Below, in pieces: positions 16,756-41,020 of a stretch of DNA of 64,000 nt. The notes under the pieces are model-generated. The model was not told where the DNA came from. It made no database searches and worked only from the letters and a program-made list of their open reading frames with translations. This DNA is from an uncultured Elusimicrobia bacterium (GTDB lineage Bacteria; Elusimicrobiota; Elusimicrobia; UBA1565; UBA9628), in the NCBI GenBank assembly GCA_965283875.1, contig CBDIQC010000001.1:810085-874084 (forward strand), read 5' to 3'. Position 1 is the first letter of the stretch. The number at the start of each line of letters is the position of its first letter. Made by a program: the position numbers and the translations under genes.

Positions 16756-17349
16756 TTAGGAGCCGGGGACGGCGCGGCAGATCGAGTAGGTCGAGACGTT
16801 TTCGCCGACCACCGTCGCCTGGACCAGCAGCACCCACGCGTTGCCCGGAGCCTGGCGCGCGAAACGGATGGTCTCGTCGGCGTAGGCGCGGCCCGAAGCG
16901 TCGAGCGCGGCGCCCACGTAGCCGTTGCCGGGCACGAAGGCGAACAAATTGGCGCCGGGCGACGGGTTGCCGTTGGCGCTCTGGCGGCGCACGCCGCGAT
17001 CGCGCGGGCTGAAGGTGTATTCGGTGGTCGTCACCGACATGCGGCGGTGCTCGCCGGGCGACACCAGGTCCACGACGCGGCGGCACGACCAGCGGCTGCC
17101 CGACAGGATGGGGAAGGCGATGCCCTCGTTGGTGAGGCGTTCGGCCTTGGCGAAGGCGTCGGCGAGCTGCTCGGGCGTCTCGTTGCCGGGGGTCGTCGCG
17201 ACCGGGGCGGGCGGGACCACGGCCGGGGCGCGGCCGCTGATCTGGATGAGAGGGAGGTGCAGGCCGCGCATCATGTAGGCGTCTTCCCAATTGGTGGCGG
17301 AGGCGGGAAGGGCGAGCAGGCACAAGGCGGCGGCCGAGGGGATCTTCAT
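16756..17349 (-). CDS. Hypothetical exported protein
   Basis: ORF 16756..17532. Start chosen at [18 protein letters not shown] (signal-peptide-like). Confidence 0.55.
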
Positions 17350-17457
17350 GCCTCTAGGATACCGCAAAGGCCGGCGCCCGCCGAGGGCCCAAAGGCCCCT
17401 CGCCGGGGCCAAAGGTCCCGCTTTCCGCCCGTCGAGGAAATCGGCTATCATCGGCCC

Positions 17458-18933
17458 ATGCCCCTTCCCCCTCTTCCCGTCGCCAAGAGCAAAACCGACG
17501 TCAACGTCCTGCCCGGCATGGCCAACCGCCACGGCCTGGTGGCCGGCGCCACCGGCACCGGCAAAACGGTGTCCCTCCAGTCCTTGGCCGAGTCCTTCTC
17601 GCGCATCGGCGTGCCCGTGTTTTTAGCCGACGTCAAAGGCGACCTGGCCGGCGTGGGCGCCGCCGGGGGCGGCAACCCCAAGGTGGACGCCCGCGTGGCC
17701 GAGCTCAAGCTCGCCGGCTGGGCCCCCGAGGCCGCGCCCGTGATGAATTGGGACGTGTTGGGCCAGAAAGGCCACCCCGTGCGCGCGACCGTGTCCGAGA
17801 TGGGACCGCTCCTGCTCGGCCGCCTGCTCAACCTCAACGAGACCCAGGCCGGCGTGTTGTCCGTGGTCTTCAAGATCGCCGACGAGCAGGGCCTGCTGCT
17901 GCTCGACCTCAAAGACCTGCGCGCGGCCCTGGGCTACGTCGCCGACAACGCCGCGCAGTTCAAGACCTCGCACGGCAACGTCTCGGCCGCCAGCGTCGGC
18001 GCCATACAGCGCGGCCTGCTGACCCTCTCCGAGCAAGGCGGCGACAAGCTGTTCGGCGAGCCCGCCTTGGACCTCGACGACCTGCTGCAGACCGACGCCA
18101 AGGGCCGCGGCGTCATCAACGTGCTCGCCGCCGACAAACTCATGGCCGCGCCCACGTTGTACGCGACGACCTTGCTGTGGCTGCTCACCGAGCTCTACGA
18201 GCGCCTGCCCGAGGTGGGCGACCTCGAGAAGCCCAAGCTCGTGTTCTTCTTCGACGAGGCCCACCTGCTGTTCTCCGACGCGCCCGCCGCCCTCGTCGAG
18301 AAGATCGAGCAGGTCGTGCGCCTGGTGCGCTCCAAAGGCGTGAGCGTGTGGTTCGTCACCCAGAACCCGCTCGACGTGCCCGAGAAGGTGCTCGGCCAGC
18401 TCGGCCACCGCGTCCAGCACGCCCTGCGCGCCTTCACCCCGCAGGACCAGAAGGCCGTGCGCGCCGCCGCGCAGACCTTCCGCGCCAACCCGGGCGTCGA
18501 TGTGGAAAAAGCCATCACCGAGCTCGCCGTGGGCGAGGCCCTGGTCTCCGTGCTCGACGAGCAGGGCCGCCCGACGCCCGTGGAGCGCGCGCTCGTCTTG
18601 CCGCCCCGCTCGCGCCTGGGCGCGCTGACCGACGGCGAACGCGCCGCCCTCATCGCGGCCTCGCCGCTGGCGGGCCACTACGAGCCTAGGCCCGCACCGA
18701 TCGCATTCGGCCCAAACGCGCCGAGCAGGCCCAGGCCGCCGCGGCCGCCGCCCCGCGGCGCCGTCGGCGCCGCCCGCCCCGCCGCGCCGACGCGTCGGCG
18801 ACGACGGCCTCGTCGCGCGGTGGTGACCAGCGCCGCGCGCGCCGCGGCCAGCCAGATCGGCCGCTCCCTGGTGCGGGGGCTGATGGGCTCCTTGCTCGGC
18901 GGCCGCGGCGGCTCGCGCCGTTCTTCCTGGTAG
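17458..18933 (+). CDS. HerA-like P-loop ATPase, YjgR/DUF853 family
   Basis: [53 protein letters not shown], and a YjgR-like C-terminal tail [18 protein letters not shown]. The frame within the low-complexity stretch ~18680-18800 is uncertain. Confidence 0.8.
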
Positions 18934-35917: not shown

Positions 35918-35974
35918 ATCGCCTCCTCCTCGAAGCGCTAACATAAGCCATCTCACCGCGGTGTTTAGTGAAGT

Positions 35975-37060
35975 TTAGCGCGAAGAGCTCATCTCATCCA
36001 AACGCCATTCCGGGGCCATCGCCAAAAGCGCATCCTCCGCTCCGTGACAACCGTAAATCGGGTAATCGTGCCTGAGGCGCGCAAGGTTCAGATATGCATA
36101 AAGCTGGAAGTTGCCGAGTTTCCTCCGCACGTACACCCCATAACGCAGGCCATCCGTGACAATTAGCCGATGGCACGCGGATTTACCTTCCGCATACGAT
36201 TGGGCCTGCGATACTGCCGTTAGGCAGGAATCACCCATACGTTTCGCCTCAACGACGACACGCAAAGATCCATCACTCCGAGGCAACTGCTCGAATAGGG
36301 CGACATCTACGTGCTTCCATTCCACGGCCATCTTTTGAGGAGTCCATCCGAGGGCTCGTAGCAGCGGAACTACAAGATACGCGACCGTCTCGTGTTCCGA
36401 TGGTTTGTCTGATTCCTCGCCGGAGCGCGCATACCACTTGGCGATACGAGTCAACTCGCCAATCTCCTTTAGCAGGTTGGTGATTGACCCGCTCGCGACG
36501 CCGTGGTCAAAGAGGAATTCGGATACCCGCTCAACGGAGATTTCGCTGCTGGCATCAACCGAAGGCAGCTTAGGCAAGGCTTCACGCGCGGCCGTCTTCG
36601 GTACTTGCAGCTCGGAAAGCCACTTCATGACAGGCCCGTCATTGAGCCGCTGCGTAGTGTCTCCGAGCTTCATTGCGTATGTGCCGAACGTCTTCGGCGC
36701 TGGACGTCCGTCCCAAAACCAGCGGACGCGTCGGATATGCTGCAAGTCCCAGCCGTCAATATCTCCAAATTGATCGGCCCACTCGTAGTCGCCCACAACC
36801 TCACCGACACCGAGCACTTTCGCGGTGCCCAGCCTGAGCACCACAATGTCCCCAGGCTTCATTTCGACGGCAAACCGCTCTAGACCGGTCATTTTTCTTT
36901 GCGTCCAGTCGTCATCCAGCAAGGGCTTCTTGCAGGCAGGCCATGGACCTGCGTATCCTGGGCCATTAAGAATGACCCCCCACTTGAGACAAATATCAGC
37001 GTAATCGCGGTCGGTATCACCGGCCGCCTGCTGCCAAATCGTCTTGCCAGATATATTCAT
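35975..37060 (-). CDS. Two-domain nuclease-fold protein: unassigned N-terminal ~200 aa + C-terminal HsdR-N/Mrr-like PD-(D/E)xK domain (island gene 5)
   Basis: C-terminus SEHETVAYLVVPLLRALGW..WKHVDVALF..LRVVVEAKRMG..AVSQAQSYA = E224, D252, E271-x-K273, QxxxY. The N-terminus (GDIVVLRLGTAKVLGVGEVVGDYEW) is unassigned. Confidence 0.7.
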   Translation of the reverse strand: MNISGKTIWQQAAGDTDRDYADICLKWGVILNGPGYAGPWPACKKPLLDDDWTQRKMTGLERFAVEMKPGDIVVLRLGTAKVLGVGEVVGDYEWADQFGDIDGWDLQHIRRVRWFWDGRPAPKTFGTYAMKLGDTTQRLNDGPVMKWLSELQVPKTAAREALPKLPSVDASSEISVERVSEFLFDHGVASGSITNLLKEIGELTRIAKWYARSGEESDKPSEHETVAYLVVPLLRALGWTPQKMAVEWKHVDVALFEQLPRSDGSLRVVVEAKRMGDSCLTAVSQAQSYAEGKSACHRLIVTDGLRYGVYVRRKLGNFQLYAYLNLARLRHDYPIYGCHGAEDALLAMAPEWRLDEMSSSR

Positions 37061-37116
37061 GCTTTAGTTAGTCCGATTACGCGGTAGCGGCGCATGCTGC
37101 GCGGCGCCAAGCTGTC

Positions 37117-37617
37117 TTATTCGACCTTTCCTCTGAGATGGGTCAAGATCTGAAGAAAACGAAAAGCCGGGTTGCCTGTATCACGCGTAGTCTTCTTTGC
37201 CTCAGCCTTGAGTTGCCGTATTCGTGAAGTGTATTCCGTGTTGATTATGAGCTCAAGTCCCGCAATCTTCCGGAGAGCGTTGGTTATCGCGCCTTCGCGA
37301 ACGATGGGCGACCACAACATGAAATGAATGTCATCGAAATCCTTGAGATGCAGTCGGGCATATAGCTTTTGCCGTTCATGCTTCTCGCGCACTTTCGAGA
37401 TGGTTGTCGCGTAGCTCCCGTACTGAAGCCCATCTAGATGCGTCGTGACTTCGCACAGATACGCAGCCTTATCTCGGTGTCGCAGCCCCACCACGTCTAA
37501 CTCCGCAAGCCCGTCCAATCCGCTGACGCGGGGGCGAATGTTATAGCCGACAAAGTCACAATCGAGATGCTGGCTCAAATAGGCTCCCACCAGATACTCG
37601 CCAAGTTCAGTTTTCAT
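37117..37617 (-). CDS. Small PD-(D/E)xK-like (YraN/Hjc-like) nuclease-fold protein (island gene 4)
   Basis: LAELDVVGLRHRDKAAYLCEVTTH = D41 ... E56-V-T58, so the canonical Lys is not in place. 166 aa. Assignment is by motif only. Confidence 0.5.
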   Translation of the reverse strand: MKTELGEYLVGAYLSQHLDCDFVGYNIRPRVSGLDGLAELDVVGLRHRDKAAYLCEVTTHLDGLQYGSYATTISKVREKHERQKLYARLHLKDFDDIHFMLWSPIVREGAITNALRKIAGLELIINTEYTSRIRQLKAEAKKTTRDTGNPAFRFLQILTHLRGKVE

Positions 37618-37651
37618 CTATTGTTCTCAATGCGCGACTACCACCGAGGCT

Positions 37652-37700
37652 CAGCCGCCGCGACTTTCAGCAGACCACCCGAACGAGGTTGCGGCGGCTG
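37652..37700 (-). repeat. GC-rich hairpin repeat, copy 1 (CAGCCGCCGC - 29 nt - GCGGCGGCTG), directly after the stop of island gene 3
   Basis: Perfect 10-bp stem. Shares the 15-mer GGCTCAGCCGCCGCG (37648-37662) with copy 2. No U-tract. Confidence 0.7.
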
Positions 37701-37706
37701 AAGCTG

Positions 37707-39098
37707 TTAGTCGGACGATTCATCATCGCCAAGCATCCGATCTAGAAATTTCCGAAACATTACTTGGGACACCACGCCGTCTGCAGCACAGCGATGCATA
37801 TCCCCATGGATTAGATGGTTTTCAACACCTGCCTGGCTGGCGTGCGCATAGTCTAGGGATGTGACATCTAAGAACAAATCGCGAATAAATCCGGTCGGCC
37901 GTACATCGAAATTGTGGCAACAGACATCTTCAATTATTTGACTTTGATATTCATCCCAGTTCATGAAGCCGCTATCTGTATCAAGGGAGCCCTTTTCAGT
38001 ACTTAGTGTCACTGAGTCAATCACGCTCTTCCCGATTCGAAAGAGTTGCGAGTCCCAAACACTCCGCAGATCATCGAGATAATCCATGGCCCCAAACTGC
38101 CCCCGGTCGCTCTTTTCGAGCCCTGGGATTACTTGCAGTAGCCCGACTCCTTCGGGAGAATGATTCTTCCCCTCGCTCTGACTCGCAGCATTGATGGAAC
38201 TCCCAAGCGAAAACGGATTAACCCCGACCATTACCAGGGAATTCGAATACGGGAGCGCTTCGCGCAATTCGGACCACGCTTGGGAGCTGTAAACAAAACC
38301 ATGAATCCCCGCCGCCTCCATTTTTTGTGCGGCTAGCGCGGAAGCAGTATTTAGGCGTTTGATCTGATCTGGTGAGGGCTGTTTCTGAAGGTCAGGATTC
38401 CATGACTCTGCGCAGTATTTCCAAACAACCTTACACACGCTCAGGCTGCTTTTACGGAACGCTGATGAAGTAAGCAAGCTAACGTCTTTTCGTGCCGGAG
38501 CCCATGGAACGAGTTTGAGTGACTTTAGATCATTGGGGTCGCTCAGCTTTGGAATCAGCGCAATAACATTTCGATGGTCCAGAGTGAGACTTTGAACAAA
38601 TGCCTCGCGCGTTATTCTCGTTTCCATTGGAGCTATGAGAATGTAGACGACATCCTCGCGACTCATTCCCGGGAAAAGCAGGGACAAGTGATTTGCATAT
38701 GCCAGCAACTCCGTGAAGGACTGTCTTTCAGTTTGTGCGCTCTTCTTCAACTCAACAATTGCGACCCCTGTGTCACCAGGAAATGAACCCAAGAAGTCAG
38801 CGCGAATTGTCGAGGTTGAAGCACGCTCGAGTGGGACCTCACACCCAAAGAGTTCCAGCGATAACAACTTCTGATGAAGACTTTCGAGGCGATCAATCAA
38901 CTTGTTCCATAGAAGGTCTTCTGGCCGAACACTATCCACAGAACACTGGCTTCGAACCAGGATCTCCGAAGGCGCTAACAAATTGGAGAATTCTTCTCGC
39001 TTACTCCAGATATACTCCTGTATCTGTTTTTCAGAGAATGGCATGTCGCATTTAGATTCGTCTAGCGCCACGCTCTGCGGCGCGCGCTGTAAAGACAT
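37707..39098 (-). CDS. N-terminal NucS/DUF91-like PD-(D/E)xK nuclease domain + ~300-aa unassigned C-terminal domain (island gene 3)
   Basis: GCEVPLERASTSTIRADFLGSFPGDTGVAIVELKKS = E87, D101, E116-L-K118. The rest has no motif I recognise. Alternative start at M19. Confidence 0.65.
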   Translation of the reverse strand: MSLQRAPQSVALDESKCDMPFSEKQIQEYIWSKREEFSNLLAPSEILVRSQCSVDSVRPEDLLWNKLIDRLESLHQKLLSLELFGCEVPLERASTSTIRADFLGSFPGDTGVAIVELKKSAQTERQSFTELLAYANHLSLLFPGMSREDVVYILIAPMETRITREAFVQSLTLDHRNVIALIPKLSDPNDLKSLKLVPWAPARKDVSLLTSSAFRKSSLSVCKVVWKYCAESWNPDLQKQPSPDQIKRLNTASALAAQKMEAAGIHGFVYSSQAWSELREALPYSNSLVMVGVNPFSLGSSINAASQSEGKNHSPEGVGLLQVIPGLEKSDRGQFGAMDYLDDLRSVWDSQLFRIGKSVIDSVTLSTEKGSLDTDSGFMNWDEYQSQIIEDVCCHNFDVRPTGFIRDLFLDVTSLDYAHASQAGVENHLIHGDMHRCAADGVVSQVMFRKFLDRMLGDDESSD

Positions 39099-39132
39099 TC
39101 CTCAATGGGCGCGCGTCGGCAGAAGCGCATGG

Positions 39133-40041
39133 CTAGCAATCTCCTCCGTAGAACGCTTCCATCAAAGGATTGGAGGGCATCCCGATTACGAAAGGCGTTA
39201 CGCCCAGAATATCTGCGCCAGCATCGTGACTATTTATAAAGCCAAGTCCGGCGAACCGATTTCTTCCACTACTAGGACGAAAATGGCACAGCGCGGTGCT
39301 GGTCGTAATCCAGCGGTGATCGATATTCATAACTACTTTGCAGTCGCCCAGCTTGCAACAAATATGCGGATCTTTTTTTAAATTGCCAGAGAAGATGGCT
39401 TCGGAATAGGGATTCGATTCGGGGATGTTTATATTTTTCGTTCGGAACTGTTCGTTGAAACTTACGACCATGCCGCAGGGGTCCTGAGAGCGAACCGCTA
39501 ATTCAAGAGGAACGGCCCTCATTTGAGTTTTTTGCAAGACCCTATTAAAGTCTGCCATCAATCCACTGAGCTCTCGACCCATATTGCGCAATGACATAAG
39601 GGGTCCATATGCTGATGTGTCTAAGATGATTCCTTGTTGCGCTGTAAGCAAAGAGAGTCGGGGAATATTGATGTAGTAGAGCTGGAAGAGTTTGGTGTCC
39701 CACGCAGGCTGGTTTGAGAGGTTTGCTGTAACCCACTTGGCATGTTCCGATTTAGTTTTCTGAAGCTTCTCTACTGGGTAACTCACCGGATCGTCATCAA
39801 TTATCTTGTGATGTTTCAAACAGAGCAGCATGAGGTTTGGTTCCGCGTTTCGCTCTTCTAGAGATAGTGAGGATTGCCCGCGTGGGCCATCTCTTTCTTC
39901 CGCGACGATATGGGCAACCTCTCCGATGAGGTGTGTGAAGGCAGGAATGCATCCCTTTTCGTATAGGACATCGCGGCAAATGGCACAGCGCCCACCCCCT
40001 TGCACCCAAATCACTCTTTTAACCTTCTCTGTCGGTGGCAT
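39133..40041 (-). CDS. HNH endonuclease (CCCH zinc-finger type) + ~200-aa unassigned C-terminal domain (island gene 2)
   Basis: GGGRCAICRD..GEVAHIVAEE..NAEPNLMLLCLKHHKIID = C19xxC22, H44, N69, C74xxH77-H78. Confidence 0.75.
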   Translation of the reverse strand: MPPTEKVKRVIWVQGGGRCAICRDVLYEKGCIPAFTHLIGEVAHIVAEERDGPRGQSSLSLEERNAEPNLMLLCLKHHKIIDDDPVSYPVEKLQKTKSEHAKWVTANLSNQPAWDTKLFQLYYINIPRLSLLTAQQGIILDTSAYGPLMSLRNMGRELSGLMADFNRVLQKTQMRAVPLELAVRSQDPCGMVVSFNEQFRTKNINIPESNPYSEAIFSGNLKKDPHICCKLGDCKVVMNIDHRWITTSTALCHFRPSSGRNRFAGLGFINSHDAGADILGVTPFVIGMPSNPLMEAFYGGDC

Positions 40042-40072
40042 GATTTGTTTTGAGATTTCTAACGCTGCGGCT

Positions 40073-40122
40073 CAGCCGCCGCGCCTATTGGGATTCTACC
40101 CGCACGCGGGCGCGGGCGGCTG
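40073..40122 (-). repeat. GC-rich hairpin repeat, copy 2 (CAGCCGCC - 34 nt with nested CCCGC/GCGGG stem - GGCGGCTG), after the stop of island gene 1
   Basis: Shares GGCTCAGCCGCCGCG (40069-40083) with copy 1. Same position relative to a gene end. Confidence 0.65.
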
Positions 40123-40150
40123 TAGCCAATGGTTAGGTGGAAATTGTCGT

Positions 40151-40879
40151 TCAAGGTATCTTCCCTTCCGTAAACTGCCCCATTAGTTCCGTCCAGTGCT
40201 TTGATTTGAATCTGTCCACTGGAAACTTCGTTAGGCGATTCGGATGATTCCAAACCCACACTTCCTTGAGGCTTCCGATATCGTAAAACGCACCGTCTTC
40301 ACTATCAGCCTGTATGCGCTGGCCAGTGACAATTGCTGCTTTCTGGCCATCCTCGGAAATTCCGATTGGCATGGCAACAAGTGCTGGAATCGACTGGACG
40401 ATTGGGAATTCAAAAACAATCTCGCCCTCTATCGATACGACTGCGCAGAATTGATCAAGCCCCTTCTTAGACTTTGAAGTGCCCTCATAATTAGGGTCGC
40501 GAAGCGACTTGTCCCGGACATGCGTGGAGCATGTGATGAATGGCGCTGAGCGAGGGAATTTAAGCCCCATAGGCAATGTTAAGTGACTATGTAGCAGATG
40601 GATTGTCTTGAATGGCTTCAAGACCTTGAGTGGAACTATCGCGGTTCCACTGCAGACCCGTGCCTTAGCGCCTTTATTCGGAGATGGGCAAAGTTCCATG
40701 TCACCAGGAAGGCGGATAAAATCGAATCGGTGCGGATACTCCGCGACGATGTTTTTCTTGGTGCCGAATAGAACGCTTAGATCGTCCTCGCCACGTTTTC
40801 CGGCTAAAGCCTGTATGGCGACGAGCACTCCGATGGCCATCAGAATAATTCGCATATGCTTTGGCTGCTCGATTTCCAC
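40151..40879 (-). CDS. Hypothetical exported protein (island gene 1)
   Basis: Signal-peptide-like MRIILMAIGVLVAIQALA (start at 40879 GTG or 40855 ATG). Low GC. No recognised family. Confidence 0.6.
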   Translation of the reverse strand: MEIEQPKHMRIILMAIGVLVAIQALAGKRGEDDLSVLFGTKKNIVAEYPHRFDFIRLPGDMELCPSPNKGAKARVCSGTAIVPLKVLKPFKTIHLLHSHLTLPMGLKFPRSAPFITCSTHVRDKSLRDPNYEGTSKSKKGLDQFCAVVSIEGEIVFEFPIVQSIPALVAMPIGISEDGQKAAIVTGQRIQADSEDGAFYDIGSLKEVWVWNHPNRLTKFPVDRFKSKHWTELMGQFTEGKIP

Positions 40880-40887
40880 CTAACTTG

Positions 40888-41020
40888 TAATTAGGCCGGG
40901 CGGTATAATTAGGCTAGTGAAGTTACAACTACCGCGGATTATAGAGTGAAAACCGGTCTTTCGCCATGGGCGTTGGCGAAATATTGGAATTGAAAACACT
41001 GCGGCTATGTCAGCCTAATT
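40888..41020. repeat. AT-rich island junction with TAATTAGGC x2 (direct) and a 9-bp inverted partner AGCCTAATT
   Basis: TAATTAGGC at 40888-40896 and 40906-40914. AGCCTAATT at 41012-41020 is the exact complement of AATTAGGCT at 40907-40915. Inner hairpin TCGCCA-n7-TGGCGA. Confidence 0.6.

Follow-up and report, generated by a model that had tools for sequence, protein, structure and literature searches.

The DNA analysed here is a 64,000-nt stretch (the window) of contig CBDIQC010000001.1, positions 810,085 to 874,084 (GenBank assembly GCA_965283875.1), from an uncultured Elusimicrobia bacterium. Two adjacent genes on its reverse strand, called HNH302 and PD463 here, encode an HNH nuclease domain and a PD-(D/E)xK nuclease core, respectively, each followed by a long C-terminal region. 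A sequence-only reading of this DNA had proposed that they form a two-component effector pair. Both open reading frames (ORFs) are present as it described them, and both sets of catalytic motifs are real, being conserved in alignments of 75 HNH-family and 80 PD-family sequences. The pair itself did not hold up. The part of the locus worth following is the C-terminal module of HNH302 and the swapping of effectors in front of it. The features are collected in Table 1.

Table 1. Features of the HNH302 and PD463 locus, in window positions (aa, amino acids)
Feature	Position	Strand	Description
HNH302 gene, 302 aa	39133..40041	-	ORF; very probably a single-gene cassette
HNH (His-Me finger) nuclease domain, HNH302 residues 1-114	39700..40041	-	Cap5/SPARHA-type homology
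C-terminal domain (C-domain), ~190 aa, HNH302 residues 115-302	39136..39699	-	sequence family with swapped N-termini; candidate sensor or regulator
PD463 maximal ORF, 463 aa	37707..39098	-	ORF; very probably a single-gene cassette
PD-(D/E)xK core, PD463 residues ~80-176	38571..38861	-	E87, D101, E116, K118
C-terminal region, PD463 residues 177-463	37710..38570	-	alpha/beta plus helical, conserved; predicted local distance difference test score (pLDDT) mostly >90
attC-like hairpin 1	40057..40138	-	upstream of HNH302, after the 242-aa gene; DNA fold
attC-like hairpin 2	39060..39136	-	between HNH302 and PD463; R boxes CTAGC...GCTAGAC
attC-like hairpin 3	37636..37712	-	after PD463; R boxes CTAAC...GGTAGTC; fold z = -2.2
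Low-GC block	35966..40924	-	composition; five same-strand genes: 242-aa, HNH302, PD463, 166-aa, 361-aa
10-bp direct repeat AACTTCACTA	40915-40924 and 35966-35975	-	bounds the five-gene low-GC block
242-aa ORF	40151-40879	-	upstream neighbour of HNH302
166-aa ORF	37117-37617	-	in the same low-GC block
361-aa ORF	35975-37060	-	PADLOC PDC-S02 match, residues 58-116, E 3e-7

The two genes lie between copies of a 57-nt repeat (37638-37694 and 40059-40115; 72% identity), each of which forms a hairpin when folded. The sequence-only reading had seen these two and was right about them, but it overlooked a third hairpin of the same family that lies between the genes. The three align with a fourth from locus L050, which carries the closest relative of PD463, and all four have a CTAAC-like box, an arm, a loop, a complementary arm and a GTTAG-like box. 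The common arm is GCTxCAGCCGCC plus one or two extra bases. Integron attC sites have this same arrangement, R''-L''...L'-R'. The attC pattern (R'' RYYYAAC and R' GTTRRRY in a bulged hairpin) is complete in hairpin 1 and degenerate in hairpins 2 and 3. Hairpin 1 has canonical R boxes (ACCTAAC...GTTAGAA) and bulged bases in one arm, and a scan for both pattern and fold returned it as the sole full RYYYAAC...GTTRRR hairpin of the island. Hairpin 2 folds as DNA at -23.4 kcal/mol (z = -3.0), and none of 200 shuffled sequences did as well. It overlaps the stop codon of HNH302 and the 18 non-conserved codons at the start of the maximal PD463 ORF. CTAGC/GCTAG replaces CTAAC/GTTAG in this hairpin, a change of both arms that keeps the pairing. 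Since the conserved GTT recombination triplet is lost, hairpin 2 is possibly inactive and the cassettes are perhaps fused in practice. The R'' box of hairpin 3 overlaps the PD463 stop codon, and this hairpin is homologous to the attC site after the L050 homologue, which has the canonical GTTAG. Intrinsic termination was considered as another role for the hairpins and was rejected because they have no T tail. Also, no promoters, intrinsic terminators or Rfam RNAs accounting for the hairpins were found.

Relatives of both genes are seen in similar surroundings. The L050 homologue, which is 86% identical to PD463, has GTTAGGC/GTTAGAC upstream and the homologous attC site downstream, followed by a ParE toxin-antitoxin cassette. 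Two distant PD homologues (L117 and L118) have canonical attC sites on both sides, and a third (L125) has one downstream. The HNH homologue of Vibrio fluvialis lies in a superintegron-like array with an attC site of the Vibrio cholerae repeat type upstream. The arrangement in the window fits a cluster of attC sites lacking an integrase (CALIN-type). Single-gene nuclease defences are known to be stored in integron cassettes (bioRxiv 10.1101/2024.07.02.601686).

The distance between the genes depends on where PD463 starts. In all PD homologues the protein starts at the position of M19 (consensus xxFTEKEIQxYIW; 95% query coverage), the 18 codons that open the maximal ORF show no conservation, and residues 1-11 were modelled at a pLDDT below 50. 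Also, nucleotide homology between L050 and the window starts at 39064, 20 nt upstream of the M19 start. The true start is therefore probably M19 at 39044, giving a protein of 445 aa. The 34-nt gap given in the sequence-only reading holds only between the maximal ORFs; from the conserved start the gap is likely 88 nt (39045-39132).

Co-occurrence was examined in 169 loci from isolate genomes, metagenomes, viral contigs and Escherichia coli, which were searched with the island proteins; many of the metagenome contigs were short. Full-length PD homologues were present at 87 loci, 53 of which extend at least 1.5 kb upstream, where an HNH gene would lie, and full-length HNH homologues were present at 13. 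Apart from one identical copy, the partner gene was found at 0/87 PD loci and 0/13 HNH loci. The identical copy, L049 (Logan SRR24472965), is a public metagenome contig of 3,017 nt that matches window positions 36309-39325 at 100% over its full length. It is therefore this element seen again rather than an independent occurrence, and its identity indicates that the same organism or island was present in that sample. When neighbouring ORFs were clustered, neither family had a recurrent neighbour (11 loci for HNH). Plasmid records provided no useful full-length annotated relatives.

Since co-occurrence is nil, an attC-like site separates the genes and the 86% PD relative stands alone in its cassette, we conclude that HNH302 and PD463 are very probably independent cassettes rather than a pair. 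Their adjacency is an accident of array order. A single co-transcribed, co-acting two-component effector system would account for two adjacent genes on one strand between two similar hairpins, with no promoter-like or terminator-like site between them. The identical arrangement recurs in L049, and two-gene cassettes such as Toutatis do exist. However, L049 adds no second occurrence, and the third hairpin, the 88-nt gap and the partnerless relatives all speak against such a system, which we regard as very unlikely. Within a cassette array, adjacency and flanking hairpins are no evidence of an operon. A new nuclease system of two components is not what this locus holds, and the claim should be dropped.

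We next turn to HNH302 itself. Its family has at least 90 full-length relatives, its start at M1 agrees with the family consensus MPxSEKxK, and the AlphaFold2 model of the protein was confident (pLDDT 89.1). H44, N69, C74 and H78 are invariant in the 75-sequence alignment, and C19, C22 and H77 are at least 90% conserved. The zinc ligands are C19, C22, C74 and H77, and the catalytic residues are H44, N69 and H78. The PADLOC SAVED_HNH profile matched residues 4-117 with an E-value of 8e-31, and the PADLOC SduA profile also matched the HNH domain (E 2e-12). A PDB profile search gave the SPARHA structure 9om4 as the best match (E 4e-32, over residues 1-114), with the Cap5 entries 7rwm, 8fm1 and 7rwk at 4e-22 to 6e-19, and the first 23 Foldseek matches to the whole-chain model were all Cap5. 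The resemblance to Cap5 had been described as architectural only; these data show that the HNH domain is truly homologous to those of Cap5 and SPARHA.

The correspondence extends to individual residues. From the PDB profile alignment and the published work, the counterparts of N69 and H78 are N71 and H80 of AcaSPARHA, residues whose mutation abolishes activity (PMC12738770). H44 and E41 correspond to the catalytic His H53 and the ‘bridge’ Glu E50 of MllaSPARHA (PMC12738770). E41 is thus a candidate ‘bridge’ acidic residue, and an acidic residue at -3 from H44 is kept in the relatives of HNH302. The HNH domains of Cap5 and SPARHA are inactive until they oligomerise, are both activated by tetramerisation, and form a composite site from two HNH dimers that cuts double-stranded DNA non-specifically (PMC12738770). 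By analogy, HNH302 is probably a non-specific DNase gated by oligomerisation, with an input domain of a kind not described before. The HNH clade of SPARHA has been reported fused to many different immune modules (PMC12738770).

The C-domain of HNH302 has no counterpart in Pfam, NCBIfam, PADLOC or the PDB. Scans of HNH302 with the first three gave no match in residues 115-302, and the PADLOC matches end at about residue 117. No Pfam family, SAVED (PF18145) included, matched the region in any of the 75 relatives, and no sequence relatives of it were found in the PDB. Its recognisable motifs are YYxNxPRL, FRTKN, DPHIY, RWxTTxTAF, FAGxG and TPxxxGxP, and its invariant polar residues in the 75-sequence alignment are N125, R128, R200, T201, K202, T246 and T249. 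Two identities were tried and rejected with hhalign: SAVED, compared with the Cap5 alignment (probability 2%), and APAZ, compared with a verified HNH-APAZ alignment (probability 0.1%). A SAVED or CARF domain was likewise rejected because library scans, hhalign and whole-chain Foldseek matched the nuclease core only.

To find what else carries this domain, an exhaustive profile search was run with the C-domain alone, which returned 263 representative clusters. Among the representatives listed, 143 were classified, and these fell into three classes: 77 had an HNH domain in front of the C-domain, 52 had the C-domain only or a short N-terminus, and 14 had another N-terminus. The second class consists partly of fragments and partly of apparently genuine stand-alone proteins. 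The other N-termini included a dCMP/cytidine deaminase, a ThsB-like TIR domain, a bSEFIR-like SEFIR domain, an LmuA-like alpha/beta-hydrolase, SMEK, a CBASS Cap4-like endonuclease, a classical HNH domain and a weak Mrr-like nuclease. At least seven kinds of immune effector domain are thus found together with the C-domain. A constant C-terminal module with interchangeable toxic N-termini is the signature of an immune sensor or regulator domain. Since its N-terminal effectors are swapped, the C-domain is a candidate sensor or regulator module. The sequence-only reading had likened both proteins to effectors with a nuclease N-terminus and a sensor C-terminus; effector swapping and the HNH homology bear this out for HNH302, beyond what had been claimed, but not for PD463, whose C-terminus matches nothing and occurs in a single architecture.

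Two variants of the family were also seen. A stand-alone C-domain of 191 aa (P0246, at L172:4001-4576) adjoins a SIR2_2 protein, a GIY-YIG/RAMA protein and a HigBA pair, which suggests that split versions of the module occur in defence islands. A sub-family of ~390-420 aa (P0057-P0086, from Vibrio, Enterobacter, Serratia and Achromobacter) carries, behind the C-domain, a further ~100 aa rich in Cys (CDLC...WACMC..CF...GxGQLY), a region that is zinc ribbon-like in appearance.

What the C-domain might sense was considered next. The only non-HNH matches in the whole-chain Foldseek comparison were OB-fold proteins, namely the lysyl-tRNA synthetase N-domain and CST subunits (E 0.01-0.03), and the modelled order of secondary structure in residues 192-289 is b-b-b-a-b-b. 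This OB-like resemblance may point towards nucleic-acid sensing and is only a lead. Another possible explanation is that HNH302 is a Cap5-like second-messenger effector, with a C-domain that binds a cyclic nucleotide or other small signal from an enzyme elsewhere in the genome. The homology of its HNH domain to that of Cap5 would agree with this, the invariant polar residues of the C-domain suit phosphate binding, and the same effector set (HNH, TIR and Cap4-like nuclease) occurs on SAVED in CBASS. However, the C-domain is not SAVED, no conserved neighbour was found in 11 loci, and mobility as a single-gene cassette fits a self-contained system better. The sequence-only reading had correctly stated that no cyclase is nearby: neither a cyclase family nor any other PADLOC signal synthase was found among the 23 flanking ORFs within ~20 kb. 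We therefore consider second-messenger activation improbable.

These comparisons also separate HNH302 from its closest known relatives. Like Cap5 (PDB 7rwk, 7rwm, 8fm1, 8fmf and 9dif), it has an N-terminal effector and a C-terminal regulatory domain, and the zinc-finger and catalytic residues, the N-terminal helix and the acidic -3 residue are shared. In contrast to Cap5, it does not have a SAVED domain, it has ~80 fewer residues, and its gene moves on its own, with no CD-NTase within ~20 kb (23 ORFs) or in homologous loci. SPARHA (PDB 9om4; PMC12738770) provides the best solved-structure match and belongs to the same HNH clade, but the C-domain of HNH302 is not APAZ and no locus has an Argonaute gene.

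The PD463 family has more than 200 relatives of ~450 aa. E87, D101, E116 and K118 are invariant in the 80-sequence alignment, and the AlphaFold2 model was confident (pLDDT 90.6). Pfam, PADLOC and NCBIfam gave no match to PD463 at E-values up to 1, DUF4263 and DUF91 included, and the PDB profile search was empty; one database source names a PD homologue ‘DUF91 domain-containing protein’, and the PD family matches one PHROG of unknown function. Foldseek returned weak matches to the core: XisH-like 2okf, EndoMS 5gke, PaqCI, Nt.BspD6I, Can2 and McrC. The EndoMS and XisH-like matches had E-values of ~2e-3 and query template modelling scores of 0.16-0.18 over ~130 residues. A viral structure library also gave only weak matches, which were restricted to the PD-(D/E)xK core.

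The ~290 C-terminal residues of PD463 had no structural or sequence match by whole-chain Foldseek or in the PDB. The Can2 matches cover the core only, and SAVED and CARF were rejected for this region as well; the whole-chain Foldseek comparison thus placed neither fold in the C-terminus of either protein, where the sequence-only reading had looked to Cap4 and Cap5 as architectural models. An internal duplication of the PD-(D/E)xK fold was rejected, since hhalign among three segments of PD463 was negative. Effector swapping on the C-terminal region was rejected because the profile search returned a single ~450-aa architecture. A sensor role for this region is possible.

The PD family is widespread in Gammaproteobacteria, Cyanobacteria, Bacteroidota and Bacillota, with members in Vibrio, Aeromonas, Pectobacterium, E. 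coli, Nostoc/Calothrix, Bacteroidota and Priestia. PD genes are accessory: only 5 of 5,426 complete E. coli genomes carry a homologue. The one in E. coli EC28 is part of a lambdoid prophage, with the replication genes on one side of it and the Q antiterminator on the other. Elsewhere, the neighbours of PD genes include integrases, excisionases, HipA, AAA ATPases and toxin-antitoxin pairs; HicAB and ParDE flank the homologue of Vibrio splendidus. The E. coli homologue WP_097478788.1 appears in Table S10 of DefensePredictor among the predicted novel defence genes, with a mean log-odds of 8.15 and a remote HHblits match to the DUF4263 of SduA (probability 94.7, 22% coverage). This protein is not among the DefensePredictor tables of tested and validated systems. 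The family was thus known as a machine-learning prediction of defence, and the present data show that it is mobile both as an integron cassette and as prophage cargo. Taken together, PD463 is probably a solitary nuclease with a function in defence or in conflict between mobile elements. In the EC28 prophage (L171, 6575-10353), the PD homologue is accompanied by a class I S-adenosylmethionine (SAM) methyltransferase and, encoded on the opposite strand, a SMEK-domain protein of 299 aa, and the same three genes occur in the lambdoid accessory region of L055, L132 and L133. SMEK is also one of the N-terminal domains fused to the C-domain of HNH302.

Both proteins could instead be solitary restriction-type endonucleases, either type II-like or of the type IV or modification-dependent kind, whose C-termini recognise DNA and which cut foreign DNA directly without abortive infection. 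In favour of this, neither nuclease has a consistently adjacent methyltransferase, and the structural relatives of the PD core are solely restriction and repair nucleases (PaqCI, Nt.BspD6I, EndoMS and McrC). The weak OB-fold-like matches of the HNH302 C-domain are consistent with DNA recognition, and one PD homologue adjoins a Dcm-type methylase. However, other proteins combine the C-domain with TIR, SEFIR, deaminase or lipase-like hydrolase domains, for which DNA targeting is unnecessary. Also, the HNH domain of HNH302 belongs to the clade activated by oligomerisation and not to the one linked to McrA, SRA and EVE (PMC12738770). For the two proteins together, we find this explanation unlikely. 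For PD463 considered separately, a restriction-like (type IV) mode has nothing strongly against it and is a live alternative. A conventional restriction-modification system was not seen, as Pfam, PADLOC and NCBIfam gave no methyltransferase match in the island, and methylases adjoin few PD homologues.

PD463 differs from the known nuclease systems with which it could be compared. In contrast to Cap4 (DUF4297 plus SAVED), it has no library match and no SAVED or CARF match. Shedu (SduA) is also a single-protein nuclease defence that is frequent in integron cassettes, but the nuclease is N-terminal in PD463 and C-terminal in SduA, and no Shedu structure was among the top 50 Foldseek matches. NucS/EndoMS (DUF91) and XisH-like proteins are the closest structural matches to the core, although weak ones, and the 290-residue C-terminal region is unrelated to them. 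Since the defining regulatory domains and partner genes were searched for and not found, neither protein belongs to Cap5, Cap4 or SPARHA. On present evidence, neither appears to belong to Shedu.

The nearest parallels in genomic setting are Sirona, Nemetona, Epona, Divona and BRiCs. These are small single-gene cassettes bounded by attC sites that combine a nuclease with a domain of unknown function, and the named integron defence cassettes are also found in prophages and other mobile elements. By their descriptions, Sirona and Nemetona have NinG- or type II-like HNH domains, unlike the Cap5-like domain of HNH302. The setting also differs here in that the host is high-GC and no integrase was seen in the window. 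HNH302 and PD463 could also be selfish or toxic cargo with no immune role, such as homing endonucleases or toxins of toxin-antitoxin modules that stabilise the array. Integron arrays are rich in toxin-antitoxin cassettes, ParE is the neighbour at L050, the V. splendidus homologue lies between two toxin-antitoxin pairs, and homing endonucleases are commonly HNH enzymes. However, no small antitoxin-like partner is conserved beside either family, there is no intron or intein context, and the HNH clade, like the set of swapped domains, is that of immune effectors. A selfish role is thus highly improbable in our view.

The homologies, domain architectures, lack of co-occurrence and cassette structure were observed at this locus and its relatives; a defence role, the sensing of a trigger and activation by oligomerisation are inferred. 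The explanation we favour, and consider fairly likely, is that HNH302 and PD463 are two adjacent single-gene cassettes in an acquired block, each encoding a stand-alone anti-phage nuclease. They would belong to a small integron-type array with three attC-like sites, within a 5-kb low-GC block gained by horizontal transfer. HNH302 would be a sensor and effector in one polypeptide. Its C-domain would probably recognise an infection cue directly and drive oligomerisation, upon which the HNH domain would become a non-specific DNase, degrade DNA and cause abortive infection. PD463 would be a solitary PD-(D/E)xK endonuclease, presumably targeted or regulated by its C-terminal ~290 aa, whose gene is carried by integrons, integrative elements and the accessory regions of prophages.

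Several points weigh against this explanation. The R' boxes are degenerate in two of the three attC-like sites (GCTAG and GGTAG vs GTTAG), and a crude scan for tyrosine-recombinase motifs found no integron integrase in the 64-kb window of this 3.1-Mb contig. What is seen may therefore be the remains of a decayed array, and co-transcription of the genes is possible. The co-occurrence data are also compatible with a functional interaction specific to this lineage, in this single genome. The OB resemblance of the C-domain consists of weak matches (E 0.01-0.03) from a whole-chain comparison plus the strand order. The defence role draws on a single homologous domain, on genomic context and on a score from machine learning, and a literature search turned up no experimental test of either family.

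A more specific proposal concerns the C-domain. Residues 115-302 could be an undescribed sensor module of ~190 aa, possibly with an OB-like core, in a self-contained immune family with interchangeable killing domains, where a phage cue is sensed directly and the effector is activated by oligomerisation. This would make it a third regulatory platform for the HNH clade beside SAVED and APAZ/Argonaute. We hold this proposal tentatively, at somewhat less than an even chance. If the C-domain is a sensor, it is a new input device for an oligomerisation-gated HNH domain of the Cap5/SPARHA type, and HNH302 would offer a self-contained system of 300 aa that is easily studied.

The remaining observations concern the block and its surroundings. 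Its GC content is ~50% compared to 68-70% in the flanks, where the genes are housekeeping ones (acpS, glmS, glmM, folP, ftsH and pdxJ among them). The direct repeat AACTTCACTA occurs exactly twice in the window, where 0.02 occurrences are expected, and the two copies may be a target-site duplication or an att remnant of the block's insertion. The 242-aa and 166-aa proteins had no match. The 361-aa protein has, besides its PADLOC match, a weak Pfam HSDR_N match (type I R-subunit N-terminal nuclease) at residues 250-294 and looks like another solitary nuclease-like protein of the block. No convincing attC site was found upstream of the 242-aa ORF. A GTTAGGT core site within 40853-40884 overlaps its predicted GTG start; the true start is probably the ATG at 40855, after which the N-terminus is hydrophobic. 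A flanking ORF at a distance of more than 8 kb has a weak PADLOC SduA/DUF4263 match (E 3e-6). The window also contains a gene for a HerA-like nucleoside triphosphatase at 17047-18930 (PF05872, E 1e-206).

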